Below the pieces are notes generated by a model. The model was not told the origin of the DNA. It worked only from the letters and a program-made list of their open reading frames with translations, and searched no databases. From an uncultured Myxococcales bacterium (GTDB lineage: Bacteria > Desulfobacterota > Binatia > UBA1149 > CAITLU01), in the NCBI GenBank assembly GCA_964476185.1, contig CAYYZO010000006.1, forward strand, positions 16,529-80,528: a stretch of 64,000 bases of DNA, written 5' to 3'. This document shows, in pieces, positions 1,890 through 64,000 of the stretch (position 1 is the first letter of the stretch; every line of letters starts with the position of its first letter). Made by a program: the position numbers and the translations under genes.

Positions 1890-3046
1890 TGGCCCGCTAT
1901 TGCGCCGTCGTCGGAATCGGCCAGACCCGTCATGCCGCCAAGCGCGGCGACCTCTCGATGGTCGGCCTCGTTCGCGAGGCGGCGCTCGCCGCCCTCGAGG
2001 ATTCGGGGCTCGACTGGAAGGACGTGGAGGCGCTCGTGATCGGCAAGGCGCCGGACATGTTCGAGGGCGTCATGCAGCCGGAGCTTTTCCTGGCCGACGC
2101 GCTCGGCGCGGCCGGCAAGCCGATGATCCGCGTGCACACCGCCGGCAGTGTCGGCGGCTCGACCGCGATCGTCGCGGCGCACCTCGTGCAGTCCGGGCAG
2201 TTCTCCCGCGTGCTGACCGTCGCGTTCGAGAAGCAATCCGAGAGCGAGGCGACCTGGGCGATCACGCCGAAGCTTCCGTTCCAGCCGCCGCTCGTCGCCG
2301 GCGCCGGCGGTTATTTCGCGCCGATCATCCGGGCGTACATCGACCGGTCGAAGGCGCCTGCCGACGTCGGCCTTCGCGTCGCCGTCAAGGACCGCCAGAA
2401 CGCGCTCCGCAACCCGTTCGCACACCTCCACCTTCCGGACATTGACATTGAGACGGTCGCGAACTCGCCGCTGCTCTGGGATCCGCTGCACTACCTTGAA
2501 TGCTGTCCGTCCTCGGACGGGGCCTGCGCGATGGTGCTGGCCGACGAAGCGTCCGCGCGCCGCGTCGAGAAGAAGCCGGCCTGGGTGCTCGGCACCGCGA
2601 TGCGCAGCGAGCCGACGATGTTTCCCGGTCGCAACCAGATCAATCCGCGCGCGGGACGCGAGTGCGCGGCCGCGGTGTACCGTCAGGCCGGGATCGACGA
2701 CCCGCGCAAGCAGATCGACTGCGCCGAGGTCTACGTCCCGTTCAGCTGGTACGAGCCGATGTGGATGGAGAACCTCGGCTTCGCCGAGCTGAACGAAGGC
2801 TGGAAGATGACGCTCGACGGCGTCACGGCGTTCGACGGCGCGCTGCCGATCAACCCGTCCGGCGGCGTGCTGTCGTCGAACCCGATCGGCGCGTCCGGGA
2901 TGCTTCGCTTCGCCGAGGCGGCGATGCAGGTTCGCGGCGCGGCCGGCGAGCACCAGGTCGACGGCGCGAGGATCGCGCTGGGCCACGCCTACGGCGGCGG
3001 ATCGCAGTTCTTCTCGATGTGGATGGTCGGCGCCGAGCGCCGCTGA
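1889..3046 (+). CDS. SCP-x-type thiolase-like protein (second paralog)
   Basis: Translation MARYCAVVGIGQTRHAAK...CCPSSDGACAMVLADE...NPSGGVLSSNPIGASGMLRFAEAAMQVRG. ATG 1889 overlaps the upstream TGA as TGATG. Confidence 0.8.
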   Translation: MARYCAVVGIGQTRHAAKRGDLSMVGLVREAALAALEDSGLDWKDVEALVIGKAPDMFEGVMQPELFLADALGAAGKPMIRVHTAGSVGGSTAIVAAHLVQSGQFSRVLTVAFEKQSESEATWAITPKLPFQPPLVAGAGGYFAPIIRAYIDRSKAPADVGLRVAVKDRQNALRNPFAHLHLPDIDIETVANSPLLWDPLHYLECCPSSDGACAMVLADEASARRVEKKPAWVLGTAMRSEPTMFPGRNQINPRAGRECAAAVYRQAGIDDPRKQIDCAEVYVPFSWYEPMWMENLGFAELNEGWKMTLDGVTAFDGALPINPSGGVLSSNPIGASGMLRFAEAAMQVRGAAGEHQVDGARIALGHAYGGGSQFFSMWMVGAERR

Positions 3047-3066
3047 ACGAGCGACGGAGACGGCCG

Positions 3067-4686
3067 GTGGAACTCAACCTGGCGGACCTGTTCGAACTGG
3101 TCGTGGATACGGCGCCGGAGCGCGAGGCGCTCGTCTGCGCCGAGCGGCGCTTCACGTACGAGGAACTCGACCGCGAGGCGAACCGGCTCGCGCACTTCCT
3201 CCGCGACCGGGGCGTGAAGCCCGGCGAGCACGTCGGCATGTACCTCTACAACTGCCACGAGTACCTCGTGGCGATGCTGGCCGCGTTCAAGATCCGCGCC
3301 GTGCCGGTCAACGTGAACTACCGGTACGTCGAGGAGGAACTCGCCTACCTGCTGAACGACAGCGACCTGGTCGCGCTGTTCTACCAGCGCGAGCTCGCCG
3401 ATCGTCTCGCCGCCGTGCGCGCGAACGCGCCGAAGATCCGGGTGCTCGTCGAGGTCGACGACGCGAGCCCGCGCGCAGGCGTGCAGGAGGGCGCGGTGCG
3501 CTACGACGACGCGCTGGCCTCGTCTAGCCCCGAGCGCGGCTTCGAGCCGAGGTCCGGCAAGGATCTCTACATCATCTACACGGGCGGGACGACGGGCATG
3601 CCGAAGGGCGTCCTGTGGCGCCACGAGGACGTGCTCTACGCCGGACTCCAGGGCGGCAACCCGGGCGGAACGCCGATCGAGCGCGGCGAGCAGATCGCCG
3701 ACGTCGTCCGGAACGGACTCGCGCTGACCTTCCTGCCCGCGGCCCCGCTCATCCACGGCGCGGCGGAATGGGCGTCGTTGATCGCGTTCTTCGGCGGCGG
3801 GAAGTGCGTCCTGCAGCGCGGGAAGAGCTTCGATCCGAGGACGGTGGCGCGCCTGATCCGTGACGAGAAGGTCAATACGTTGACGCTCGTCGGTGACGCG
3901 ATGGCGCGGCCGCTGGCCGAGGCCATCGCGGAGATGGGCGACGAGGCCGACACGTCGACGGTGTTCGTCATCGGCTCGGCCGGCGCCGTGCTTTCCGAAG
4001 CCGTCAAGGAGCAGCTGCGCGCCGCGATCCCGTCGACGATGATCGTCGACAGCTTCGGCGCGACCGAGACCGGCCACCAGGGGCAGATGGCGCCGGGAAC
4101 CGGGCACGGCGCCGGGCAGAGCCCGCTCTTCTACATGAACGACACGAACTGCGTCCTCGACGAGAATCGCGTGCCCGTGGCTCCCGGAAGCGGCGTGGTC
4201 GGCAAGCTCGCGCGCCGCGGCCACATCCCGGTCGGTTACTACAACGACCCGGAGAAGACCGCCGCGACGTTCTTCGAGATCGACGGGGTGCGCTGGGTGA
4301 TGCCCGGCGACCTCGCGACGGTCGAGGCCGACGGCAGCATTCGCGTGTTCGGTCGCGGCTCGGTCTGCATCAACAGCGGCGGCGAGAAGATCTTCCCGGA
4401 GGAAGTCGAAGCCGCCCTCAAGGCGCACCCGGACGTGCTCGACGCCGTCGTCGTCGGCATCCCCGACGAGCGCTGGGGACAGCGCGTCGCGGCGCTCGTG
4501 CAGCCTCGGCCCGGAGCGGCGCCGACGGTCGAAGAGCTGGACCGGCACTGCCGCACGAAAGTCGCCGGCTACAAGGTCCCGCGCTTCGTCAGCTTCGTCG
4601 ACCAGGTCGCGCGCCAGCCGAGCGGCAAGCCGGATTACCGCTGGGCCGCGAGCTGCGCCGCCGAGCGCGCCGCGTCCGGATCCTGA
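3067..4686 (+). CDS. AMP-dependent acyl-CoA synthetase/ligase (FadD3/FadD19-like)
   Basis: AMP-binding motif YIIYTGGTTGMPKGV is present, with C-terminal GYKVPRFVSFVDQVARQPSGKPDYR. GTG 3067 (VELNLADLFELV) is chosen over the GC-noise N-terminus of the 728-aa track ORF. Confidence 0.85.
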   Translation: MELNLADLFELVVDTAPEREALVCAERRFTYEELDREANRLAHFLRDRGVKPGEHVGMYLYNCHEYLVAMLAAFKIRAVPVNVNYRYVEEELAYLLNDSDLVALFYQRELADRLAAVRANAPKIRVLVEVDDASPRAGVQEGAVRYDDALASSSPERGFEPRSGKDLYIIYTGGTTGMPKGVLWRHEDVLYAGLQGGNPGGTPIERGEQIADVVRNGLALTFLPAAPLIHGAAEWASLIAFFGGGKCVLQRGKSFDPRTVARLIRDEKVNTLTLVGDAMARPLAEAIAEMGDEADTSTVFVIGSAGAVLSEAVKEQLRAAIPSTMIVDSFGATETGHQGQMAPGTGHGAGQSPLFYMNDTNCVLDENRVPVAPGSGVVGKLARRGHIPVGYYNDPEKTAATFFEIDGVRWVMPGDLATVEADGSIRVFGRGSVCINSGGEKIFPEEVEAALKAHPDVLDAVVVGIPDERWGQRVAALVQPRPGAAPTVEELDRHCRTKVAGYKVPRFVSFVDQVARQPSGKPDYRWAASCAAERAASGS

Positions 4687-49995: not shown

Positions 49996-51059
49996 AACCA
50001 GCCCCGTTGTCCGACGACGCCGACGGTCCCTTCTGGAGCGGGGATCTCGACTATCGCTTGCCGGCCGACCGCATCGCACAGTCGCCGGCCGAGCGGCGCG
50101 AGGGATCGCGACTGATGGTCCTCGACCGCCCGAGCGGCGCGATCGAGCACGCGACGTTCGCGGACATCGCGAGGTTCCTCCCGGCGTCGGCGCTGCTCGT
50201 CGCGAACGACTCGCGGGTGATCCCGGCCAGGCTGCGCGGTCGCAAGGCCGGGAGCGGCGGCGCGGTCGAGGCGCTGTTGCTCGGCGTCGGATCCGGTTCG
50301 GTCGTCCCGGCGATGGTGCGCGTCGCCAAGCCGCTGCGCGAAGGCCAGGTCGTCGAATTCGCCGGCGGCGTGACCGCGCGCGTCGTTTCGCCGCCCGAGC
50401 ACGGCCGGGCCGAGCTCGATTTCGGTCCGGTCCCGGTCGAGGAGGCGCTCGCCCGCGCCGGGGAGCTTCCGCTTCCGCCGTACATCGAACGCAGCGCCGG
50501 CCCGACCGAAGAGGACCTCGAACGCTACCAGACCGTCTACGCGCGGCGCCCGGGATCGGTCGCCGCGCCGACCGCCGGGCTGCACTTCACCCCCGGGCTG
50601 CTGGGCGAGCTCGGCGAGCGCGGCTTCGAGTTCGCGACCGTGACGTTGCACGTCGGTCCGGGCACCTTCACGCCGGTGCGCGGTGATCTCGGGACGCACC
50701 AGATGGAGGAAGAGGCGTACGAAATCGGCGGCGACACGGCTTCGCGCATCGCGCTCGCGCGCCGGCAGGGGCGGCCGGTGGTCGCGATCGGCACCACGAC
50801 GGTGCGCACGCTCGAGAGCGCCGCGCAGCGCGACGGGACGGTCGCGACCGGACCCGGCCGCAGCCGGCTCTTCATCCGTCCCGGCCACCGGTTCGCGGTC
50901 GTCGACGCGCTGGTGACGAACTTCCACCTTCCCGGTTCGACCCTGCTCGCGCTCGTGATGGCGCTGGCCGGACGCGACCTCGTCCGCCGCGCCTACCAGG
51001 TCGCGGTCGAGGACGGCTACCGCTTCTACAGCTACGGCGACGCGATGCTGATTCGATGA
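49992..51059 (+). CDS. queA: S-adenosylmethionine:tRNA ribosyltransferase-isomerase
   Basis: LDYRLPADRIAQSPAERREGSRLMVL...PLPPYIER...TAGLHFT...VAIGTTTVRTLES. GTG 49992 overlaps the udg stop (GTGA). Confidence 0.9.
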   Translation: MKPAPLSDDADGPFWSGDLDYRLPADRIAQSPAERREGSRLMVLDRPSGAIEHATFADIARFLPASALLVANDSRVIPARLRGRKAGSGGAVEALLLGVGSGSVVPAMVRVAKPLREGQVVEFAGGVTARVVSPPEHGRAELDFGPVPVEEALARAGELPLPPYIERSAGPTEEDLERYQTVYARRPGSVAAPTAGLHFTPGLLGELGERGFEFATVTLHVGPGTFTPVRGDLGTHQMEEEAYEIGGDTASRIALARRQGRPVVAIGTTTVRTLESAAQRDGTVATGPGRSRLFIRPGHRFAVVDALVTNFHLPGSTLLALVMALAGRDLVRRAYQVAVEDGYRFYSYGDAMLIR

Positions 51060-52180
51060 GTACCCTGCGATTCGAAGTCCTCGCGACGGCGCGCGGCGGC
51101 GGCCGCCGGGGCCGTCTCACGCTGCCCCACGGAACGGTCGAGACGCCGGCGTTCATGCCCGTCGGGACCTACGGGAGCGTTCGCGGCCTGACGCCGCGGC
51201 AGCTGCGCACCGCCGGCGTGCAGATGGTGCTCTCCAACGCCTACCACCTCGCGCTCCGGCCCGGAGCCGAGCGCATCCGCGCGCTCGGCGGCATCCAGCG
51301 TTTCATGGGGTGGGACGGTCCCGTGCTCACCGACAGCGGCGGCTTCCAGGTGTTCAGCCTCGCCGACACGGTGAAGATGGACGAGCAGGGGGCCGTGTTC
51401 CGGTCGCACCTGGACGGCTCGAAGCTGCGCCTGACGCCGGAGAGCGTCGTCGAGCTCGAGCGGGCCCTCGGGGTCGACATCGGCATGGCGTTCGACGTCT
51501 GCGTCGCGCGGCCGGGCGATCGCGAGGCCGCCGCGGCCGGCGCGGCCCGCACGCTGCGCTGGGCGGTGCGGACGCGGGAGGTCCTCGAGGACACGTCGCC
51601 GACCTCGATCTTCGCGATCCAGCAGGGCGGCCTGTTCGAGGACCTGAGGCGCGAGAACTCCGAGGGGCTCGTGGAACTGGACTTTCCGGGCTACGCGGTG
51701 GGAGGCCTTTCGGTCGGCGAGGCTCGCGACGAGACGATGCGCACGGCCGAGTTCTCGGTCGCGATGCTGCCCGTTCACAAGCCCCGCTACATGATGGGGA
51801 TGGGGACCCCCCTCGATCTCGTGGACCTGTGCGGATGGGGCTACGACCTGTTCGACTGCGTGCTCCCGACCCGCAACGGGCGCAACGGCAGCGCGTTCAC
51901 GGCGGAGGGCCCCCTGACGATCCGCAATGCCCGTCACGCGAGCGACGACCGGCCGCTCGAGGACGGTTGCGATTGTGAAGCTTGTCTAGACTTTTCGCGC
52001 GGTTACTTGCATCATCTGGCGCGGCGCGGAGAGATGCTCGGAGCCATTCTCACGAGCCTTCACAACGTACGATTCTACCAGCGGCTCATGGCGGACATCC
52101 GCTCTGCGCTCTCGTCCGACACGTACGAAGCGTTCCGGACCGCGTTTCGCGCCCGCTACGAAGGAGAACCCCATGGCTAG
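51056..52180 (+). CDS. tgt: queuine tRNA-ribosyltransferase
   Basis: TPAFMPVGTYGSVRG...VLTDSGGFQVFSL...DCVLPTRNGRNG...CDCEAC. ATGA overlap with queA. Confidence 0.9.
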   Translation: MSTLRFEVLATARGGGRRGRLTLPHGTVETPAFMPVGTYGSVRGLTPRQLRTAGVQMVLSNAYHLALRPGAERIRALGGIQRFMGWDGPVLTDSGGFQVFSLADTVKMDEQGAVFRSHLDGSKLRLTPESVVELERALGVDIGMAFDVCVARPGDREAAAAGAARTLRWAVRTREVLEDTSPTSIFAIQQGGLFEDLRRENSEGLVELDFPGYAVGGLSVGEARDETMRTAEFSVAMLPVHKPRYMMGMGTPLDLVDLCGWGYDLFDCVLPTRNGRNGSAFTAEGPLTIRNARHASDDRPLEDGCDCEACLDFSRGYLHHLARRGEMLGAILTSLHNVRFYQRLMADIRSALSSDTYEAFRTAFRARYEGEPHG

Positions 52181-52499
52181 CGCCCCCACCGAGTTGATCC
52201 TCGCGCAGGCCGCGCCCGACGCGCTGATGCAGATGCTGCCGCTGGCGATGATCCTGGCGGTTTTCTATTTTCTGCTGATCCGCCCGCAGCAGCAGAAGGC
52301 GAAAGAGCACGAAGACTTCGTGAAGGCGCTCAAGCGCGGCGAGATGGTCCTCACGACGAGCGGCCTGTTCGGCCGGATCGTCGAACTGAAGGACCAGGAA
52401 GTGTTGCTCGAAATCGCCCCGAACGTGCGCGTGCGGTACGAGCGTTCGAAGATCGCTTCCGCCGTCAAGTCGACGGCCGCGGCGGCCAAGGCAGACTGA
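52173..52499 (+). CDS. yajC: preprotein translocase subunit YajC
   Basis: MLPLAMILAVFYFLLIRPQQQKAKEHEDFVKALKRGEMVLTTSGLFGRIVEL. Confidence 0.85.
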   Translation: MASAPTELILAQAAPDALMQMLPLAMILAVFYFLLIRPQQQKAKEHEDFVKALKRGEMVLTTSGLFGRIVELKDQEVLLEIAPNVRVRYERSKIASAVKSTAAAAKAD

Positions 52500-52542
52500 A
52501 CCTGAACGCTCGCGACTCGAGCGGCCCCAAGGAGGGAAGAAC

Positions 52543-54105
52543 GTGGAACGCGGTTTGAAGTGGCGGCTCGTCACCGTGCTGGCCAGCCTGGCGATCGGCC
52601 TGGTGGCGCTGGTGCCCAATTTCACGGCGGATCTGCCGGATTGGTGGAAAGTCGTGCTGCCGAGCCAGCCGATTTCCCTCGGCCTGGACCTTCGCGGCGG
52701 CATCCATCTGGTGCTCGAGGTGCAGGCGGACAAGGCGGTCGAGAATCACGTTGACGCGCTGATCGAGCAGCTTCGCCGGGACGCGCGCGAGGACGAGATC
52801 GCCACGCGGGACTGGAAGCGCGACGGCATGGACACGCTCTCCTTCACCGTCGTCGGCGACGGGAAGGCGGCCGCGATGCAGAAGCTCGTTGCCGACCGGT
52901 ACCCGGTTCTCGTCCCGGCCTCCGGGGCGGAAGGCGGGCTGCGCTATCGCATGGCCGAGGACGAGGTGAAGGGCATCAAGGACCTCGCCGTCGACCAGGC
53001 GCTCGAGACGATCCGGAATCGCGTCGACGAGTTCGGGGTCGCCGAGCCGACGATCCAGCGCAGCGGGAGCGACGGCATCCTGATCCAGCTTCCGGGCGTC
53101 CAGGACCCGGCGCGCGCGAAGGCCCTGATCGGCAAGACCGCGCAGCTCGAGTTCATCATGCTGGCCGACGATCCCAAGGCGCCGGGAGTACGACAGCTCA
53201 TCGGGTTCGAGACGGATCCGGTCACGCACACCGTTCGCGAGGTGCCGTACAGCGTCGAGCCGACGGTGCTGATGACGGGGGAAGTTATCTCCGACGCCAG
53301 GCATCGCCCGGGCCAGCTCGGGGAGGCGCCCTACGTGCAGGTGACGCTGACCTCCCAGGGCGCGTCCACGTTCGAGCGCATCACCGGCGAGAACGTCGGC
53401 AGGCGCATGGCCATCGTGCTCGACGGGAAGGTCCAGAGCGCGCCGGTCATCCAGGACCGGATCGGCGGGGGGCGCGCGGTGATCACCGGAAGCTTCACGC
53501 TCGACGAGGCCCGCGACCTCGCCCTGGTTTTGCGAGCCGGCGCCCTCCCGGCGCCGGTCGTCATCGCCGAGGAGCGAAGCGTCGGTCCGTCGCTCGGGCG
53601 CGACTCGATCGAGGCCGGCACGCGTTCGTTCCTGATCGGCGGCCTCGCCGTCATCGTGTTCATGGCGGCCTACTACCGCTTCGCCGGGGTCGTGGCCGAC
53701 CTCTCGCTCGTGCTCAACGTCGTGCTGCTGCTGGCCTGCCTCTCGGCGTTCCGCGGAACGCTGACGCTTCCCGGCATCGCCGGCGTGGTGCTCACGATCG
53801 GCATGGCCGTCGACGCGAACGTCCTCATCAACGAACGCGTCCGCGAGGAGATGCGGCGCGGCCACACGTCCCACGCGGCGCTCGAGGCCGGTTACCGTGA
53901 AGCGCTGCCGGCGATCCTGGACTCCAACATCACGACGTTCCTCGCCGGCCTCATCATGTTCCAGTTCGGGTCGGGTCCGGTGAAGGGCTTCGCGCTGACG
54001 TTGTGCATCGGCATCCTGACGACGGTGTACTCCGCGGTGTTCTGCTCGAAAACGCTCCACGAATTCATGGTCTGGCGAAATCCCAAGTCGCCGATCAGCA
54101 TCTGA
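52543..54105 (+). CDS. secD: protein translocase subunit SecD
   Basis: LGLDLRGGIHLVLEV..., a periplasmic domain and a C-terminal 6-TM bundle. Conserved yajC-secD-secF order. Confidence 0.9.
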   Translation: MERGLKWRLVTVLASLAIGLVALVPNFTADLPDWWKVVLPSQPISLGLDLRGGIHLVLEVQADKAVENHVDALIEQLRRDAREDEIATRDWKRDGMDTLSFTVVGDGKAAAMQKLVADRYPVLVPASGAEGGLRYRMAEDEVKGIKDLAVDQALETIRNRVDEFGVAEPTIQRSGSDGILIQLPGVQDPARAKALIGKTAQLEFIMLADDPKAPGVRQLIGFETDPVTHTVREVPYSVEPTVLMTGEVISDARHRPGQLGEAPYVQVTLTSQGASTFERITGENVGRRMAIVLDGKVQSAPVIQDRIGGGRAVITGSFTLDEARDLALVLRAGALPAPVVIAEERSVGPSLGRDSIEAGTRSFLIGGLAVIVFMAAYYRFAGVVADLSLVLNVVLLLACLSAFRGTLTLPGIAGVVLTIGMAVDANVLINERVREEMRRGHTSHAALEAGYREALPAILDSNITTFLAGLIMFQFGSGPVKGFALTLCIGILTTVYSAVFCSKTLHEFMVWRNPKSPISI

Positions 54106-55839: not shown

Positions 55840-56859
<1,020 letters not shown>

Positions 56860-56949
56860 TCGCGCAGCGTGAGTTGCGACGCGCGCGGGGTCAAGCTGGC
56901 ATTCTGCCGGCCGCGAAAGGTCGCGGTCGATGCGCGAGCGGGCGTCTCG

Positions 56950-58050
56950 TCACTCGCGAGCAGCAGCGGCCGTGGCGATCGCATCCGCGAGTTCGCGCTG
57001 AACCGGCGGCACGGCTTCGCGTCGCAGCGCCGCGTCGAGCGCGAGCCGTGCTTCGGAGCCCGCGACGGTGGCAAGACGGCCCAGCGCCCACGCCGCATGG
57101 GCGCGCACGAGCGGCTCGTCGTGGCCCAGCGCACGGGCGAGGGGAGCCACTGCGTCCGGGTTGCCGGTGTTGCCGAGCACGACCGCGGCGTTGCGGGCGA
57201 GGCCGCGGCGCTTGGGTCGCAGGAGGGCGGTGCCCGCGAAACGCTCGCGGAACTCCGCATCGCTCATCTCGAGCCACGCCGGAAGCCACGGATCCTGCTG
57301 CGGGTGCGGTTCGCGCTCGGGCTCGTTCCAGGGGCAGACATCCTGGCACGCGTCGCAGCCGAACACCCAGTTCCCGACACGCTCGCGCAGCGCGCGAGGA
57401 ATCGGGCCGCGATGTTCGATGGTCAGGTACGAGATGCAGAGCCGCGCGTCGATCGTCGGCCCGTCGTCGAGCGCGCCGGTCGGGCAGGCCGGGATGCAGG
57501 CGCGACAGGTGCCGCAGTGCGACGCCTCGAACGGCGGATCCGGCTCGAGTTGCGCGGTGGTGACGAGCGCGCCGAGCACGAACCCGGACCCGAGTCCCGG
57601 CCGCAGCAGGTTCGTGTTGCGGCCATACCAGCCGATTCCGGCTCTTCGGGCGAGTTCCTTCTCGACGAGCGGGCCGCCGTCGACGTGGACGACCGCCTCG
57701 GCGCCGGTCGCCTCGCGCAGCCATTCGGCCAGTTGCTCGAGGCGCCCGGCCACGTGCGCGTGGTAGTCGCCGCCGAGCGCATACGCCGCGACGCGGCCCC
57801 GCAGTTCCTCGCGCCATCGCGCCGGAGCCGGCAGCGCGACGGCGTACGCCGACGCCACGACGACCGCGGAGCGGGCCCCTTCGAGAGCGAGCGAGGGGCG
57901 AAGCCGACGCTCGTGCTTCTCCGCGAGGTACTGCATGTCCCCGTGACGGCCGGCGGCGAGCCACTCGGACAGCAGGGGGCCGCAGGCCAGGTCCTCGGCG
58001 GTCGTGATCCCGCAGGCGGCGAAGCCGAGAGCCGCGGCCCGACGCCGCAC
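56950..58050 (-). CDS. queG: tRNA epoxyqueuosine(34) reductase
   Basis: Cobalamin/4Fe-4S region HCGTCRACIPACPTGAL...CISYLTIEHRG...GCDACQDVCPWN plus C-terminal HEAT-like repeats. GTG 58050 is chosen because the longer track ORF would overlap the divergent iscA-like start. Confidence 0.75.
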   Translation of the reverse strand: MRRRAAALGFAACGITTAEDLACGPLLSEWLAAGRHGDMQYLAEKHERRLRPSLALEGARSAVVVASAYAVALPAPARWREELRGRVAAYALGGDYHAHVAGRLEQLAEWLREATGAEAVVHVDGGPLVEKELARRAGIGWYGRNTNLLRPGLGSGFVLGALVTTAQLEPDPPFEASHCGTCRACIPACPTGALDDGPTIDARLCISYLTIEHRGPIPRALRERVGNWVFGCDACQDVCPWNEPEREPHPQQDPWLPAWLEMSDAEFRERFAGTALLRPKRRGLARNAAVVLGNTGNPDAVAPLARALGHDEPLVRAHAAWALGRLATVAGSEARLALDAALRREAVPPVQRELADAIATAAAARE

Positions 58051-58158
58051 CTCGGCTTCGAAGGGCCGGTGGTCGTCGGGCGCGCCGTCGTTCCGATCGA
58101 CTGCGTTGCGCGCGCCGGCTCCAGTGTTAGAGTCGTCGTCTCTCAACGGAGAGCCGCA

Positions 58159-58506
58159 ATGACAGATCGCATCGTCGAACTCACACCACTGGCCGTCGAG
58201 CGGGTTCTGGCCGCACGCTCCGAGGAAGGACACCCGGCCGACGCCGGCCTGAGGCTGGCCGTCGTGAAGGGCGGCTGTTCAGGCTACGAGTATTCCGTGA
58301 AGTTCGTGCCTGAACCGGACCGAAACGACTACGTTTTCGAGGTCGGCGGGCTTCGCGTGTTCGTCGATCGCGACAGCGAGCGCCTGCTGCGCGGCACGGT
58401 CCTCGACTACGTCGACGGTCTGCACGGCGCCGGCCTCCGGTTCGTGAACCCGAACGCGGGGCACGACTGCGGTTGCGGCGCATCGTTCGCTGCCGCCGAA
58501 GGCTGA
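58159..58506 (+). CDS. iron-sulfur cluster insertion protein (IscA/SufA/ErpA HesB family)
   Basis: GLRLAVVKGGCSGYEYSVKF...VNPNAGHDCGCGASFAAAEG carries the conserved Cys triad. Confidence 0.85.
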   Translation: MTDRIVELTPLAVERVLAARSEEGHPADAGLRLAVVKGGCSGYEYSVKFVPEPDRNDYVFEVGGLRVFVDRDSERLLRGTVLDYVDGLHGAGLRFVNPNAGHDCGCGASFAAAEG

Positions 58507-59609
58507 GCAGCACCATCTCCCCCTCGCGCCGGCACCAGCGGATCGCGGTCTACGTCTCCGCCCACGGGATGGGGCACGCGGTTCGCGCCGCGGCAGTGAT
58601 CGAACGACTCCGTCTTCTCGCTCCCTTGAAGGTCACCGTCCTGGCCGACCGCGAGCGCGGCGTGTGGCCCCTGCGACTCCAGGATGCGATAGCGGCCTGG
58701 CACCGGCTGCCTTGCGATGTCGGGGTCATCCAGAGCGACGACGTCACGGTCGACCGGGTCGCGACCGGGGCGGCGCTGGATCGCTGGCTCGCCGACCTTC
58801 CCGCCATCGTCGAACGAGAGCGACGGCGCCTCGAAGGGCACTTCGACCTGGTGATCGGGGATGTGCCGTCTCCCGCGTTCGAGGCGGCGGAACTTGCGAA
58901 AATTCCAGCATTTGCGGTCGCAAACTTCAGCTGGGACTGGATTTATTCCGAGCTCGGATTCCCGGACGCGGCCCGTGCCGCGGGGGAGGGCTACCGCCAC
59001 GCGACCCTGCTGCTCGAGGCGAGCCCGAGCGCGCCGATGCCTTCGTTTCCCAGACGAAAGCCGGTCGGTCTGGTCGCGCGCGAGCCGTCGACCGGTCGGG
59101 ACGCGGCCCGTTCCCGCCTCGGCCTGAAGACTGGGGAGTCGCTGGTCCTGCTCGCGTTCCAGCCTGTGTCCGCGCCACAGGTACGGTTGCCGACGCCGCG
59201 GCCCGGGCGACTTTTCCTCGTGCCGGCGGGCTGGATCGGCGAGACCCGCGGCGATCTTCGCGAACTGCCCGAAGAACTTGGCTTCCTCGAGGCCATTGCC
59301 GCCGCCGATGTCGTCGTCGGCAAGCCCGGCTACGGACTGATCGGGGACATCGAGGCCGCCGGGGCGCGGTTCCTGTACGTGCCGCGCCCGGGGTTTCCCG
59401 AGAACGAGGTTCTCGAGCGGCACCTCGCCGCGCGCGGTGGCACCGCGTCCCTGGCGGCGGCGCGACTTGCGGAGGGGCACTGGGGAGACGAACTCGGTGA
59501 ACTCGAGGCCTACGAGTCTCCGCGTCCGGCGGACGCCGGCGGCGCTGCGGTCGTCGCCGGGGAGATCGCGTCCGCGCTGGGAATCGACTCCGGTGGCGCG
59601 ACGGACTAG
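58473..59609 (+). CDS. putative GT-B fold glycosyltransferase-like protein (MurG/GT28-like N-terminus, HGxGH motif)
   Basis: IAVYVSAHGMGHAVRAAAVIERL. TTG start at 58473 overlaps the iscA-like 3' end by 34 nt. No ATG or GTG exists before the conserved region. Confidence 0.4.
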   Translation: MRRIVRCRRRLSSTISPSRRHQRIAVYVSAHGMGHAVRAAAVIERLRLLAPLKVTVLADRERGVWPLRLQDAIAAWHRLPCDVGVIQSDDVTVDRVATGAALDRWLADLPAIVERERRRLEGHFDLVIGDVPSPAFEAAELAKIPAFAVANFSWDWIYSELGFPDAARAAGEGYRHATLLLEASPSAPMPSFPRRKPVGLVAREPSTGRDAARSRLGLKTGESLVLLAFQPVSAPQVRLPTPRPGRLFLVPAGWIGETRGDLRELPEELGFLEAIAAADVVVGKPGYGLIGDIEAAGARFLYVPRPGFPENEVLERHLAARGGTASLAAARLAEGHWGDELGELEAYESPRPADAGGAAVVAGEIASALGIDSGGATD

Positions 59610-59618
59610 CGTCGCGCC

Positions 59619-60152
59619 GTGTCCTCTCCTGTCGCGCCAACCTCGCTGAACGGGAACGCCGCCGACTCCGGCGCGACGTCCATGCCATCCGGTCGAGCCC
59701 CGGCCTGGTCGGTATCGGTGTTGATCACCAGCGTCGCACTCTGGATCGGCGCGGCCGTGTACCTGTCCGCCGGCGTGCTTCCGCTGCTGTTCATGAACCT
59801 CGAGCCGGCCGAAGCCGGCCGCATCGCGGCGCTCGTGTTTCCGCTCTATTTCCGTGCGGGGCTCGCGCTCGGCCTCGTCGCGACGCTGGCAGCCGCGGTC
59901 GTGGCCCGCGGCGGCGGGCGTCGATGGGCCGGGGTCATGGCGTTGCTGGCGGCGATGACGCTGGCGCAGGGATGGTCGGCCGTCGTGGTCCACCCGGAGA
60001 TGGCGGCGATCCGCGGAGTCGAGGCGGAACTCGCGCGCTTCCAGCAACTGCACGCCCTGTCCGTCCGCTTGAACTCGATCGTGCTGTTCGGCGGCGGGCT
60101 GCTGCTCGTCGGTTCCGGCTTCCTGTTCTCTCGCAACCGTGGCCGTTCCTGA
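59619..60152 (+). CDS. DUF4149-like small membrane protein (4 TM)
   Basis: TM helices WSVSVLITSVALWIGAAVYLSAGVLPLLF etc. GTG 59619; an alternative ATG at 59682 (MPSGRAPAW) is equally plausible. Confidence 0.5.
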   Translation: MSSPVAPTSLNGNAADSGATSMPSGRAPAWSVSVLITSVALWIGAAVYLSAGVLPLLFMNLEPAEAGRIAALVFPLYFRAGLALGLVATLAAAVVARGGGRRWAGVMALLAAMTLAQGWSAVVVHPEMAAIRGVEAELARFQQLHALSVRLNSIVLFGGGLLLVGSGFLFSRNRGRS

Positions 60153-60891
60153 AGCCCTCGTCTTCGACCTGTTCGGCACGCTCGTCTTCTTCGACGACAC
60201 GCGCGTGCCCTGGGTGGAAGTCGCAGGGCGACGCATGCCGGGCACGGTGGCGAGCCTGCCGCAGCTGCTGGCCGAGGCGCTGCCGGGCTGCGAGCCTCGG
60301 GCGTTCCTCCAGGGCCTCGCGCGCGTGAGCGCCGCGATCGCGGAGCAGAAGAGCCGCGAGGGCATCGAACTTCACAGTTCGGTGCGCTTCGAGCGCACGC
60401 TCGTCGAACTCGGCGCGGAGGCCGCCGTGGCGGCGTCGGTCGCGAAGAGGATGGCGGCGGAACACATGGACGCCCTCGCGCGAGCGATCGTCTGCCCTCC
60501 GGGTCGCGCCGACCTGCTGCGCGACCTTTCCCGCGCCCATCGTCTCGCGCTGCTCTCGAACTTCGACGACGGCGCGACGGGACGGCGCATCCTCGCGGAA
60601 GCGGGCTTGCTCGACGCGTTCGAAGTCGTGGTGATCTCGGAAGAAGAGGGGATCCGGAAACCCGCCGGAGAAATCTTCGCGCGAACCTGCGGGCGCCTCG
60701 GCGTGGCTCCCGGCGACTGCCTGTATCTCGGGGACACTCTCGTCGAGGACATCGAGGGCGCGACCGCGGCCGGCTTGCGCGCGCTGTGGGTCGGGTCGTC
60801 GGCCGGCAGCCGGGAATCGCCGGCCGTCGGCGTGCTCGCGGACGTTGCGGCGCTGCCCGGGTGGCTCGCGCACGAGCGACGCCGGGAATGA
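60139..60891 (+). CDS. HAD-superfamily hydrolase, subfamily IA
   Basis: Motif I LVFDLFGTLV, motif II LLSNFD, and motifs III/IV ...LYLGDTLVEDIEGA. Confidence 0.75.
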   Translation: MAVPEALVFDLFGTLVFFDDTRVPWVEVAGRRMPGTVASLPQLLAEALPGCEPRAFLQGLARVSAAIAEQKSREGIELHSSVRFERTLVELGAEAAVAASVAKRMAAEHMDALARAIVCPPGRADLLRDLSRAHRLALLSNFDDGATGRRILAEAGLLDAFEVVVISEEEGIRKPAGEIFARTCGRLGVAPGDCLYLGDTLVEDIEGATAAGLRALWVGSSAGSRESPAVGVLADVAALPGWLAHERRRE

Positions 60892-60894
60892 GGT

Positions 60895-61713
60895 TCAGGC
60901 CGGTCGTGGACGCGCGTTGCGACGCAGGACGGTGATGAACCCGGTGTGCGCGACCATGCGATGGTCGGGCCGCATGCTCACGGCGTCGACGTGCCATCGG
61001 CGCTCGAGCACCTCGAAGGTTTCCGCCTGGCCGAGGTCGTCGCGGTCGCGCACGGCGTCGTGGATCGCCTTGACCTGCAGCACCGTCGGCGCGAACGCGA
61101 CCAGGATGCCGCCGTCGCGAAGCGCAGCGGCCGCCGACGGCAGCACCGAGACCACGTCCGGGACGTCGATCACGATCCGATCGACGTCCTGTTCGTCGAG
61201 ACCGGAGGCGGCGTCGCGCACGCGGATCGTCCACCACGGCGTCTCGCCCTCGTAGCGCGCGACGTTTCGCCGCGCTTCCTCGGCGAAGTCCTCCCGGATC
61301 TCGTACGTGAAGAGCCGGCCGGTCGGCCCGACGCCGCGCAGCAGCGCCATCGACATCGCGCCGCAGCCCACGCCGATCTCGACGGCGGTCTGGCCCGGAC
61401 GGATGTCGCCGCGCATCAGGATCAGGCCCGCGTCCTTGGCGAAGATCGGCTCGGCCGGTCGTTCGAACAGCGGCACCACCTCGGCGTAGCCGGGCCGGAA
61501 CACCTGGAACTCCTCCTCCCGGGGGCCGCCGCCGCCGCGGATCCACGAACCCTCGGGGAGGCCGATCAGCCGGTCGCACGCGAGGATCGAGGAGCGGATG
61601 GTGAGGCGATGGCCCGCCCGCAGGCGCTTCAGGTGCCGGCGGCCGCGGCGATCGACGAGCAGCACCGGGTCTCCGTCGGCGAGGGCAGCGCGAACTGGGG
61701 TGGGGCTGGCCAT
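60895..61713 (-). CDS. trmI: tRNA (adenine-N1)-methyltransferase (TrmI/GCD14 family)
   Basis: N-terminal beta-domain LLVDRRGRRHLKRLRAGHRL; Rossmann VEIGVGCGAMSMALL...DVDRIVIDVPD. ATG 61713. The upstream 70 aa of the track ORF are discarded. Confidence 0.8.
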   Translation of the reverse strand: MASPTPVRAALADGDPVLLVDRRGRRHLKRLRAGHRLTIRSSILACDRLIGLPEGSWIRGGGGPREEEFQVFRPGYAEVVPLFERPAEPIFAKDAGLILMRGDIRPGQTAVEIGVGCGAMSMALLRGVGPTGRLFTYEIREDFAEEARRNVARYEGETPWWTIRVRDAASGLDEQDVDRIVIDVPDVVSVLPSAAAALRDGGILVAFAPTVLQVKAIHDAVRDRDDLGQAETFEVLERRWHVDAVSMRPDHRMVAHTGFITVLRRNARPRPA

Positions 61714-61882
61714 GGCGGCGCCCCTTCGCGCATACGGCGGAGCGTTGCAACGGGCGTCGGGCTGACGCACGTCGTGTTGACTGCAAGGCCCGACCCGGTA
61801 GGATCCCGCGTTCCGCCGCGCACCCGTCCCTCGAGAGGGAGACGGCCTGCCGGTCCAGCTTACCCGGTCGCACGAGAGAGCC

Positions 61883-62050
61883 ATGGGCGCGAAGAAAGCC
61901 AAAACCGCACAGAAGACCTCCACACAGCAGAAGCACGCCTGTCCCGATTGCGGGGCCGAGGCCCGGATCGTGATGTACGCCGGATTCGGGGACCGTGGTC
62001 TCTTCTGGGTCTGCGAGAAGGCCTGCGGCTACAAGCAGCGCACTCGCTGA
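61883..62050 (+). CDS. small basic Cys4 zinc-ribbon protein (55 aa), absent from the six-frame track because it is under 60 aa
   Basis: MGAKKAKTAQKTSTQQKHACPDCGAEARIVMYAGFGDRGLFWVCEKACGYKQRTR translated by hand. GAGAGAG RBS before ATG 61883. CxxC...CxxxC ligands. Confidence 0.45.
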   Translation: MGAKKAKTAQKTSTQQKHACPDCGAEARIVMYAGFGDRGLFWVCEKACGYKQRTR

Positions 62051-62060
62051 GGCGTCCACG

Positions 62061-62525
62061 GTGGGGCGAGCGAAGAAGAAGGGGGCGTCGGGCAACGGCG
62101 AATTCAGTCTCTTCGACGACGGCGATACCTCCGATTCGGACGCCGACGAGGATCTTCCACGCGACGAAGCCGGTCGCGCGAAGATCAAGCACCAGTACGT
62201 CGACCTGCTCGGGATCCGGGTGCAGAAGCTCGCGGGGCGGATTCTCAACCGCGAGCGCATCAACAAGACGCTCGAGGGCATCTACTTCGTCTGCGTGAGC
62301 TGCAAGACGGTCTGTCACAATCTCGACGAAGGCCTCGTCGAGGATGCCGAGAACAAGGCCAACATCTGCACGCCGTGCTCCAGGCAGCCCTCCGAACCGG
62401 CCAAGGCGCCGGCCAGGAAGCCGGCAGCCGCGCGCGCGGACGACGATGCCGAGCGCGCCCCGGCCCGCAAGAAGGCCACGAAGTCGAAGCCCGCGGCCAA
62501 GGCCGCTCCGAAGAAAAAACGCTGA
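62061..62525 (+). CDS. zinc-finger protein with acidic N-region and Lys/Ala/Pro-rich histone H1-like C-terminal tail (putative nucleoid-associated / DNA-binding)
   Basis: GTG 62061. CVSCKTVCHNL...CTPC is a C4 finger. The tail is PAKAPARKPAAARADDDAERAPARKKATKSKPAAKAAPKKKR. Confidence 0.5.
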   Translation: MGRAKKKGASGNGEFSLFDDGDTSDSDADEDLPRDEAGRAKIKHQYVDLLGIRVQKLAGRILNRERINKTLEGIYFVCVSCKTVCHNLDEGLVEDAENKANICTPCSRQPSEPAKAPARKPAAARADDDAERAPARKKATKSKPAAKAAPKKKR

Positions 62526-62526
62526 G

Positions 62527-63420
62527 CTAGCGCGGCGACCGCCGCAGCAGCGCGAGGGCCCTGAGGAAGTCGCCCGGAGGACTCGCCGTCACGTCGATTT
62601 CGCCGGCGATCTCGACGCGCAGCGCGTGCAGCAGTTGTCCCTGCCGCGCGCAGCCGGCCAGCGGCTCTCCCCCATAGCGCTCGTCACCGAGGATCGGATG
62701 GCCGATCAGGGCCAGGTGGGCTCTCACCTGGTGCGTGACCCCGGTGCGCATCGTTGCGAGCACGAGCGTCCAGTCCCGACCGCTTTCGAGGGGCTCGAAG
62801 AGGGTCTCGGCTTCCATCGCCTCCCCGGCGGTAGCGTCGGCCGGGGCCACGCCCGATGCCCGCCTGGCCAGGGGCTGGTCGACGCGAACGATGCGTCGGA
62901 GCCTGCCGGAGGCCAGCGCGAGGTAGCTTTTCCTGGTCGCGCCGGCGGAGAACGCACGCCGCAGTCGCAACCAGGTGGCGCGATCCATCGCCGCGACCAC
63001 GGCTCCGGAGGTGTCGCGGTCGAGCCGGTGCACGAGTCCGCCCTCCGCAGCCCGGTCGCCGATCGAACCACGTTCCCCGAAGCGCTCCTCGAGCAGTTCC
63101 GCAACCGAACCGGCCGAGCGACCCTGCTCACAGTGGAGGCCGGCGGGCTTGTCGACGACGACGAGGCGGGGGTCCTCGTATACGATGCGGATCGCAAGCC
63201 GGGGAGGGGCGGCCGGAAGGTCGGCAGGCGGTTCGACCACGACCGTGCTGCCGGCGGGCGGAACATCGGAGCCCCTGCCGGTCCGTCCGTCGACCCGGAC
63301 GCGTCCGGCCTGCAGCCACTCGCGGACGAGCCGGCGGCCGCGACCCGTCGCGTCGGCGACGAGGCGGTCGAGTCGCTCTCCGGTGGGCGGCACGACGAAT
63401 CGAATCGCGTCTTCGGTCAC
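62527..63420 (-). CDS. RluA-family pseudouridine synthase (RluD/RluC-like)
   Basis: S4-like N-terminus RLDRLVADATGRGRRLVREWLQAGRVRVDG; catalytic HRLDRDTSG; ...RTGVTHQVRAHLALIGHPILGD. Confidence 0.85.
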   Translation of the reverse strand: MTEDAIRFVVPPTGERLDRLVADATGRGRRLVREWLQAGRVRVDGRTGRGSDVPPAGSTVVVEPPADLPAAPPRLAIRIVYEDPRLVVVDKPAGLHCEQGRSAGSVAELLEERFGERGSIGDRAAEGGLVHRLDRDTSGAVVAAMDRATWLRLRRAFSAGATRKSYLALASGRLRRIVRVDQPLARRASGVAPADATAGEAMEAETLFEPLESGRDWTLVLATMRTGVTHQVRAHLALIGHPILGDERYGGEPLAGCARQGQLLHALRVEIAGEIDVTASPPGDFLRALALLRRSPR

Positions 63421-63626
63421 GGACGGTGACGCTATGCAGCACCGGCGTGACAGGCAACGTGGTGGAACTTGCTTTTCGGGGTTTGGACGTTGAGGATCGA
63501 GTCTCCGTGACCAGTCGGAAGAAACGAACGAGCGCGGCCAGGAGGCCGGCGCAGGGCGGCGGCGTCCCCGCCGCTCCGGCGCGAAGCCGCGGCGTGCCCG
63601 CCACGACGCGCGGTCGCGGCGTGCCC

Positions 63627-64000
63627 ATGTCCCGCCGCTTCGCGGTCGTGCTGGCCGGCGGCGTCGGCTCCCGCTTCTGGCCGTGGAGCCGGGAAGCGAA
63701 GCCGAAGCAGTTGCTGGCCCTGACGTCGGACCGCTCGATGCTCGCGGAAACGGTCGAGCGCCTGCGCGGGATCGTTCCGGAAGGCAACGTGTTCGTCGTG
63801 ACGGGCCGGCGGTATCGCCGCCCGGTGCTCGAGGAATGTCCCGGCCTCGACCCGGCGTGCGTGCTGGGCGAGCCCGTCGGCCGCAACACGGCAGCCGCGA
63901 TCGCGTGGGCGACGCTCGAGGTGCGACGCCGCACGCCCGACGCGGTCATCGCGGTGCTTTCCGCCGACCATCGCATCGACGACACGCGTTCGTTCGGGCG
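63627..64000 (+). CDS. mannose-1-phosphate guanylyltransferase-like sugar nucleotidyltransferase, 5' fragment (continues beyond window)
   Basis: MSRRFAVVLAGGVGSRFWPWSREAKPKQLLAL...GRNTAAAIAWA is the ManC/GMP N-terminus. An in-frame GTG 63507 would add a basic 40-aa extension. Hand-translated; no stop within the window. Confidence 0.7.
   Translation, partial: MSRRFAVVLAGGVGSRFWPWSREAKPKQLLALTSDRSMLAETVERLRGIVPEGNVFVVTGRRYRRPVLEECPGLDPACVLGEPVGRNTAAAIAWATLEVRRRTPDAVIAVLSADHRIDDTRSFG

Follow-up and report, generated by a model that had tools for sequence, protein, structure and literature searches.

RbpA of the Actinobacteria is a lineage-specific, zinc-associated protein that binds RNA polymerase and has a basic segment contacting DNA, and the HMGA-like part of Myxococcus CarD is defined by RGRP AT-hooks. 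Histone-H1-like lysine repeats are found in the C-terminal domain of actinobacterial TopA as well as in HupS/HupB, Ku and HrdB, and those of HupB and Ku are required for DNA interaction; in E. coli, it is the zinc fingers of TopA that bind single-stranded DNA (PMC7398561). Here, we analysed a locus that combines parts of these kinds. It lies in a stretch of 64,000 nucleotides (nt), hereafter the window, of contig CAYYZO010000006.1 (assembly GCA_964476185.1; G+C content 70%) from an uncultured bacterium labelled Myxococcales and placed by GTDB in Binatia. The locus consists of two open reading frames (ORFs) read from the sequence, ORF1 (61883-62050, + strand), coding for a basic zinc-ribbon protein of 55 amino acids (aa), and ORF2 (62061-62525, + strand), which starts with GTG and codes for a 154-aa protein with a Lys/Ala/Pro tail. 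An earlier reading made from the letters alone, called the sequence-only reading below, had pointed out this tandem pair, with a gap of 10 nt, and its coordinates and sequences proved to be as described. We found that the pair is a self-contained bicistronic transcription unit with its own conserved promoter-like site, specific to Binatota, a globally distributed phylum that has no cultured member and is known only from metabolic reconstruction (PMC8262859). The histone-H1-like tail of ORF2 is a clade-specific replacement of a short, alanine-terminated tail.

ORF1 and ORF2 are real, conserved protein-coding genes. ORF1 codes for MGAKKAKTAQKTSTQQKHACPDCGAEARIVMYAGFGDRGLFWVCEKACGYKQRTR (55 aa, translated from 61883-62050) and, being shorter than 60 aa, was missed by an ORF list with a 60-aa minimum, exactly as had been noticed. 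The G+C content at codon positions 1/2/3 was 0.55/0.54/0.80 for ORF1 and 0.63/0.48/0.86 for ORF2, resembling that of the flanking genes, and 0.74/0.58/0.59 for an antisense ORF of 152 aa. When ORF1 was compared with its nearest relatives, the differences at codon positions 1/2/3 numbered 1/1/19 (non-synonymous rate dN 0.016, synonymous rate dS 0.92), and against the closest relatives dN/dS was about 0.02-0.04 for ORF1 and about 0.11-0.17 for the first 108 codons of ORF2. Conserved homologues, the third-position G+C pattern and dN/dS values of 0.02-0.17 are thus the opposite of the outcome on which the sequence-only reading was to be given up, namely no conservation and codon statistics of non-coding DNA. 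At the place of 62061, the ORF2 homologues open with M[GA]R.KK, and 127 of 145 have ATG there; a longer frame of 176 aa starting at 61995 was ruled out by these starts. Both genes are single copy within the window. Other long frames of 811 aa (59846-62281, - strand), 450 aa (60946-62298, + strand) and 784 aa (56152-58506, + strand) cross several real genes; they are artefacts of GC-rich DNA with Arg/Pro/Ala-rich translations, and would mislead an ORF track based on length.

The pair is divergent from the upstream gene and convergent with the downstream one, and forms an operon with neither. Both flanks had been named correctly, as confirmed by Pfam matches: upstream lies TrmI/GCD14, a tRNA (m1A) methyltransferase (60895-61713, - strand; GCD14 8.6e-25, TrmI-like_N 8.7e-10), and downstream an RluA-subfamily pseudouridine synthase (62527-63420, - strand; PseudoU_synth_2 2.1e-22), whose score on TIGR00005 is 159 bits, under the cut-off of 192.7. 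A sigma-70-type promoter-like site, TTGACT-16 nt-TAGGAT (61777-61804, + strand), stands 5' of ORF1 as its putative promoter. It was the sole sigma-70-like match in 61400-62900, with 0.0 expected from shuffled sequences. All of 10 aligned relatives keep the TTGAC of its -35 hexamer unchanged, and of the 122 loci whose upstream sequence is long enough, 87 have a TTGAC at a distance of 70-160 nt 5' of ORF1. A near-consensus -35 element, TTGAC[AT], with a TA-rich -10 element about 17 nt downstream, is kept 5' of ORF1 even in GC-rich genomes. The sequence suggests a strong housekeeping promoter upstream of ORF1, and the near-consensus -35 element gives only a hint that the pair may be strongly expressed. 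RNAalifold gave no consensus pairs for the 5' untranslated region in 10 relatives, and no credible Rfam match was obtained in 58000-64000.

As to translation signals, a "good" ribosome-binding site had been claimed for ORF1. The purine run is indeed there and conserved, since (C)GAGAGAGCC-ATGGG at the ORF1 start is kept across 10 aligned relatives, but it is Shine-Dalgarno-like and not a textbook case: GAGAGAG (61874-61880, + strand) ends only 2 nt before the ATG. The gap between the ORF1 stop and the ORF2 GTG (62061) is exactly 10 nt; the median gap of 116 related loci is 17 nt. The Shine-Dalgarno sequence of ORF2, GAGG (62049-62052, + strand), overlaps the ORF1 stop codon TGA (62048-62050) and ends 8 nt before the GTG, and this overlap points to translational coupling of the two genes. 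At the other end, the stop codons of ORF2 and rluA are 1 nt apart. A weak terminator-like hairpin with a T-run was seen at 62519-62533 (- strand), just past the rluA stop and within the last ORF2 codons; this T-run is the complement of the terminal AAGAAAAAA Lys codons of ORF2.

ORF2 has 1043 database homologues, all annotated as hypothetical and none with a Pfam domain, and those that bear an organism name are Candidatus Binatia metagenome-assembled genomes (MAGs). The ORF2 protein in its exact form gave no match in a contig index. When one genome per GTDB species was scanned, relatives of ORF2 were found in 334 species-level genomes. The best 80 of these 334 are Binatia or Binatota MAGs or are labelled Deltaproteobacteria, Myxococcales or Polyangiaceae UTPRO1, which are historical classifications of Binatota, UTPRO1 being one of its orders (PMC8262859). 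A profile search for ORF2 among 1.84 billion cluster representatives retrieved only 68 clusters at E<=1e-3, mostly fragments or frameshifted calls, and among those 68 no bridge to a known family was found. For ORF1, a single sequence gave 29 matches and a profile 415; the best 120 of these 415 all have 54-57 aa (some as longer gene calls) and belong to the same lineage. Both families are therefore restricted to the phylum Binatota. Some loci with trmI, ORF1 (where present), ORF2 and rluA in the complete Binatota order came from MAGs labelled Nitrosopumilus sp., Enterobacteriaceae and Alphaproteobacteria (L044, L048 and L023); these contigs are probably mis-binned or mislabelled.

Gene neighbourhoods were counted in the best 80 ORF2-bearing genome loci and in a separate set of 80 metagenome loci found from ORF1. 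In the genome loci, trmI is upstream of ORF2 in 62 and rluA downstream in 67, while ORF1 is directly upstream of ORF2 in 51 and absent beside it in 29. Among the metagenome loci, 76 have ORF2 directly downstream of ORF1 on the same strand and the other four end too soon to tell, so that not a single ORF1 without ORF2 was found in the 76 loci with room for it. The two genes are thus a true tandem pair in which ORF2 is always directly 3' of ORF1. On a neighbour-joining tree of the ORF2 core, ORF1 is missing in 4-5 separate clades, and a relaxed ORF2 core was sought in the genomes without ORF1 and not found, the core being equally conserved there. Because ORF1 was lost in these clades with the ORF2 core no less conserved, ORF2 is the primary component and ORF1 an accessory partner. 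In other Binatota lineages, the pair follows ileS-lspA with neither trmI nor rluA nearby, and ORF1 and ORF2 are still adjacent. The translation-flavoured neighbourhood that had been pointed out is therefore real, but the pair is a unit of its own that is found elsewhere in other contexts. Guilt by association is weak here, since the pair is transcribed separately and its context changes in some Binatota. In many other Binatota, trmI and the pair are separated by two further genes that the window lacks and whose names were given by eye only: one for a PP-loop/zinc-finger tRNA-thiolase-like protein resembling TtuA (L019 2630-3559, - strand; L031 ~2542-3500, - strand), the other for a small ThiS/TtuB-like protein ending in GG (L019 ~3556-3760, - strand; L031 3492-3692, - strand). 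Judged from their sequences, trmI and these TtuA-like and TtuB-like genes would form a tRNA T-loop modification cluster.

ORF2 (isoelectric point, pI, 9.3) alternates charged segments, with net charges of +4 (residues 1-8), -10 (9-36), +7 (37-70), -3 (71-108) and +10 (109-154). Its N-terminal region (62061-62168, + strand) is predicted to be disordered, with a predicted local distance difference test score (pLDDT) of about 48-61 in AlphaFold2, and comprises a basic head, an FSLFDD motif and an acidic run. The acidic N-region previously claimed for ORF2 is thus present as residues 9-36. The FSLFDD motif (residues 15-20; 62103-62120, + strand) is hydrophobic-acidic and conserved: none of 32 homologues departs from K6, F15, F18 and D19, and across 145 members the motif reads [FLY]x[ILVM][FL][DE][DE]. 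A beta-clamp-binding motif (QL[SD]LF) was considered here and rejected as unsupported, since FSLFDD has no Gln and loosens to Phi-x-Phi-[FL]-[DE][DE] among the family members. The conserved core (residues 32-108; 62154-62384, + strand) comprises LPxDE, a helix, a basic hairpin and a putative zinc site. In an alignment of 32 diverse members, 48 columns are invariant between residues 6 and 106, and in 146 sequences 27 positions are still invariant, including Y75, C78, C81, H86, C103 and C106, the LP of LPxDE and several within G38-R-x-K-I-K-x-Q-Y46 and G59-R-I-L-N-R-E-R-I-x-K69. C85 is present in 144 of the 146. The codons of the Cys4 site are at 62292-62294 (C78), 62301-62303 (C81), 62367-62369 (C103) and 62376-62378 (C106), and those of the adjacent Cys-His at 62313-62315 (C85) and 62316-62318 (H86), all on the + strand. 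The spacing is CxxC-x21-CxxC, which corrects the x19 given before. The basic surface residues R39, K41, K43, R53, K56, R64, R66 and K69 are also invariant, and the basic beta-hairpin (residues 61-77) reads GRILNRERINKT. An AlphaFold2 model built on the homologue alignment was modest (mean pLDDT 63; 73-83 over residues 41-110); in it, residues 36-56 form a helix and 61-77 a long hairpin that ends at the first knuckle, and a short helix sets off from the second knuckle, an arrangement that appears treble-clef-like in this model.

No described family accounts for this core. Searches found no significant PDB fold or sequence match (the profile search gave nothing at E<=10), and the full protein matched no Pfam family at E<=1 and nothing in PHROG or PADLOC, while NCBIfam gave low-complexity matches alone (E 0.012-0.48). 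PADLOC gave no hit for either protein, Foldseek against BFVD nothing below E 0.2, and literature searches returned no published description of the ORF1 or ORF2 proteins. From its sequence, ORF2 is firmly shown to be a small protein under strong constraint that carries a conserved Cys4(+His) motif and represents an undescribed family. The ORF2-like helix-hairpin-zinc domain was also seen at the C-terminus of two longer proteins, P0216 (318 aa; L161 1896-2852) and P0199 (184 aa; L162 474-1028), which are rare and have neither the acidic head nor the basic tail. P0216 adjoins a Prim-Pol + PriCT_1 + AAA_25 replication protein (L161 2-1498, - strand) on a short contig, which suggests that it is a mobile-element copy of the ORF2 domain.

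The Lys/Ala/Pro tail claimed for ORF2 is present at residues 109-154 (62385-62522, + strand), with a histone-H1-like composition: its 46 aa comprise 15 Ala, 10 Lys and 7 Pro, and a weak 12-nt tandem repeat (PAKK) lies at 62397-62425. Being Lys/Ala/Pro-rich, cationic and repetitive, it has the composition of a histone-H1-like lysine-repeat tail. Such a tail is no hallmark of the family, though. The tail length ranges from 3 to 118 aa with a median of 17 aa, and the 33 members out of 146 with a tail of at least 30 aa all belong to the branch of the family that includes the window, while a tail net charge of at least +3 was found in 133 of 145 members. The ends differ as well. Ala-Ala terminates 97 of the 113 short-tailed members, 75 of them with AAA (typically KQAAA or KAAA), and none of the 33 long tails, most of which finish with lysine-rich ends such as KKK or KKR; the window's ORF2 has no -AA end and carries the polycationic tail instead. 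No relation was found between tail length and genomic G+C content (Spearman 0.05). These alanine ends of the short-tailed members resemble C-terminal degrons of the ssrA/ClpX type.

How does ORF2 compare with described proteins? With the actinobacterial lysine-repeat tails it shares a low-complexity, cationic Lys/Ala/Pro composition, PAKK-type repeats and a variable length, but its tail is carried by an unrelated zinc-finger core and by about a quarter of the family only, and the likeness is compositional, with no alignable homology. The sequence-only reading had instead drawn a parallel with chlamydial Hc1-like proteins and Myxococcus CarD. What these two and ORF2 have in common is a basic, low-complexity C-terminal region; no Hc1 match was obtained in Pfam at E<=1 and residues 109-154 contain no RGRP AT-hook, so that neither an Hc1 protein nor a CarD HMGA-like domain was retained, and lysine-repeat tails would be the better analogue. 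Taken as a whole, the observation made from the letters stood with minor corrections and its interpretation stood in part, that is, for conservation, pairing and zinc-finger type and not for a family-wide tail or for the Hc1/CarD likeness. Three other comparisons concern the core. RbpA is alike by analogy: it too is small, highly conserved and restricted to a lineage, and has a zinc-associated core and a basic segment that touches DNA. Its domains come in another order, however, and a comparison with M. tuberculosis RbpA (hand-entered query) by hhalign gave a probability of 0.06%. DksA/TraR proteins are also small, with an acidic segment, a helix and a CxxC...CxxC site, but their spacing is x17 against x21 in ORF2, and the ORF2 model has a single helix and no coiled-coil hairpin; there was no zf-dskA_traR Pfam match, and hhalign against E. 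coli DksA (hand-entered sequence) gave 0.2%. Finally, the ClpX zinc-binding domain PF06689 was rejected, as the best member reached 18.8 bits for a threshold of 27 and one of 25 members matched (E 0.088); hhalign with the E. coli ClpX N-terminus (hand-entered sequence) aligned 14 columns, the knuckle motif, at a probability of 24%.

ORF1 (pI 9.6) has cysteines at residues 20, 23, 44 and 48, that is, CxxC-x20-CxxxC (codons 61940-61942, 61949-61951, 62012-62014 and 62024-62026, + strand), and an N-terminal peptide KKAKTAQK. In 27 homologues, C20, P21, C23, G34, G36, G39, C48 and G49 are invariant, and A6, K7, T8, Q10, K11, F41, W42, V43 and C44 nearly so. The AlphaFold2 model shows three beta strands (pLDDT 80-86 over residues 21-55), and in this predicted structure two Cys knuckles on beta-hairpins and a small three-stranded sheet make a zinc ribbon. 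The pair had been taken as small zinc-ribbon proteins, ORF1 as a basic one; by their pI values and motifs, both are basic and of zinc-finger type, and their cysteine motifs would allow both to bind zinc. No Pfam or NCBIfam model reached its cut-off for ORF1, and only sub-threshold generic zinc-ribbon matches were obtained. ORF1 resembles topoisomerase-I-type and GRF-type ribbons (Zn_ribbon_Top1 PF01396; Zf-GRF of APE2; COG0551). An assignment to PF01396 was nevertheless rejected, its matches being below the gathering threshold (3 of 27 members, best E 0.018), and so was one to zf-GRF, which was not among the 25 families listed of the 30 matched in the Pfam scan. The ribosomal proteins eL43 (L37ae) and eS31 (S27ae) were discarded with NCBIfam scores of 17.1 for a cut-off of 87 bits and 14.8 for 54, and the DNA gyrase inhibitor YacG with 15.7 for 79 bits, the first knuckle alone aligning. 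The sole PHROG match (E 0.0078) is a family of unknown function and came with no matched stretch.

What, then, could the pair do? The reading that we favour, still tentatively and at a little less than an even chance, is that the ORF2 core and tail, together with ORF1, make a lineage-specific nucleic-acid-binding module, most likely for DNA. The core and tail of ORF2 would bind a polyanionic nucleic acid, most likely DNA, and the acidic N-terminal segment may mask the nucleic-acid surface or recruit a protein partner. In this genome's clade, the H1-like tail would have taken the place of a short ancestral one and would raise the non-specific affinity for DNA, leading to a behaviour like that of nucleoid-associated proteins, and ORF1, as a basic zinc ribbon, would be a helper, co-expressed but dispensable, that contributes the binding of single-stranded nucleic acid. 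We infer here the binding of nucleic acid, the choice of DNA over RNA and any physical contact between ORF1 and ORF2. This reading is favoured because the basic helix-hairpin of ORF2 is invariant and because the tails are consistently cationic yet variable in length, net-positive tails of variable length being typical of non-specific polyanion binding. Further reasons are that lysine-repeat tails are known in DNA-binding proteins, that ORF1 resembles topoisomerase and GRF ribbons, and that the long relative P0216 adjoins a replication gene. Several points weigh against it. Over all its members, the ORF2 family is no more than mildly basic (medians of +5 for net charge and 9.0 for pI), and the H1-like tail, its main DNA-type feature, is absent from three quarters of the members. 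Most members end in -AAA, which suggests a regulator under the control of proteolysis and not a structural chromatin protein. The automatic names given to ORF1 homologues by the Joint Genome Institute are inconsistent (topoisomerase zinc ribbon, S27AE, L37AE, Elf1, DUF1610), and the common neighbours of the pair are RNA-modification genes (trmI, ttuA/ttuB-like, rluA). None of the computed results shows a nucleoid or ribosome role for either protein.

A first alternative is a module linked to translation, in which ORF2 (with ORF1) would bind rRNA, tRNA or the ribosome as a ribosomal or ribosome-associated protein or as a cofactor of RNA modification. The order trmI-(ttuA/ttuB-like)-ORF1-ORF2-rluA is kept in most Binatota (trmI in 62 of 80 loci, rluA in 67 of 80), among the other contexts, ileS was seen upstream of the pair and an rsmD-like gene (named by eye only) downstream, and the proteins are small, basic, of zinc-ribbon type and conserved to the level of ribosomal proteins. 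However, the pair shares no transcript with the RNA-modification genes, to which it is divergent or convergent with a promoter-like site of its own, and the linkage to trmI and rluA breaks in several lineages where that between ORF1 and ORF2 persists. All loci come from one phylum, so that the gene order may simply be inherited. Moreover, the ribosomal-protein scores of ORF1 are far under their cut-offs, as given above, and -AAA ends and a 28-residue acidic segment are unusual in ribosomal proteins. Because the pair is independently transcribed and stays together in other contexts, a link to translation is weakened, and we consider it improbable, if still worth weighing.

Also doubtful in our view is a second alternative, in which ORF2 would be a protein-binding regulator, acting on RNA polymerase, a sigma factor, a replisome component or a protease, with its level set by C-terminal degron proteolysis, its basic segments being secondary and ORF1 a modulator. 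The 27 core positions invariant in 146 sequences are what a small protein contacting a conserved machine may show, the short hydrophobic-acidic motif within a disordered acidic segment is like partner-docking motifs, and the Ala-Ala ends of the short-tailed members (97 of 113, 75 of them AAA) are like ssrA/ClpX degrons; RbpA of Actinobacteria offers a precedent. Contrarily, profile comparison with DksA and RbpA was negative, the ClpX match amounts to 14 columns at a probability of 24%, and the gene context indicates no partner. In the window itself, ORF2 lacks the -AA end and its 46-aa polycationic tail points to nucleic acid. The readings are not fully exclusive, as ORF2 could be a DNA-tethered regulator. 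Finally, it is very improbable, and effectively refuted by synteny, pairing and dN/dS, that either ORF or the two of them arose by chance as open frames of GC-rich DNA, or that they belong to a mobile, toxin-antitoxin or defence cassette. In its favour, ORF1 is very short, long spurious GC-rich frames do cross the locus (the 811-aa and 450-aa ones) and a rare long relative of ORF2 adjoins a Prim-Pol replication gene, but selection is strongly purifying with substitutions at third positions, the chromosomal position is fixed across the phylum, the genes are single copy in the window and no PADLOC or PHROG family was assigned.

Further tRNA-modification and housekeeping genes lie elsewhere in the window (51056-54105 and 56950-58506), all named from their translations only. 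A tgt-like gene (51056-52180), a yajC-like gene (52173-52499) and a secD-like gene (52543-54105) follow one another. Closer to the pair, the - strand codes for an epoxyqueuosine-reductase-like 4Fe-4S protein (56950-58233), and a HesB/IscA-like C-terminal segment has its end at 58506.

Altogether, the two proteins of the locus represent two uncharacterised families for which Pfam and NCBIfam have no model. The pair is built from familiar kinds of parts. Since conserved hypothetical proteins confined to one lineage are frequent, its present value is moderate. It is also a clean case, provided by nature, in which one clade has fitted an existing small protein with a histone-H1-like lysine-repeat tail. 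By analogy with the role of RbpA and CarD in Actinobacteria, we also put forward, as a conjecture that we hold to be rather unlikely, that ORF2 may be an accessory subunit, essential and specific to the phylum, of one of the core machines of information processing (RNA polymerase, replisome or ribosome), with ORF1 as an optional co-factor and with the -AAA end and the H1-like tail as alternative ways to control dosage or tethering; if so, the ORF2 domain would be a previously undescribed zinc-finger fold family. Being conserved to the level of ribosomal proteins, ORF2 likely touches a central process. The two families are near-universal markers of Binatota, useful as a phylum-specific marker and as a candidate new family entry.

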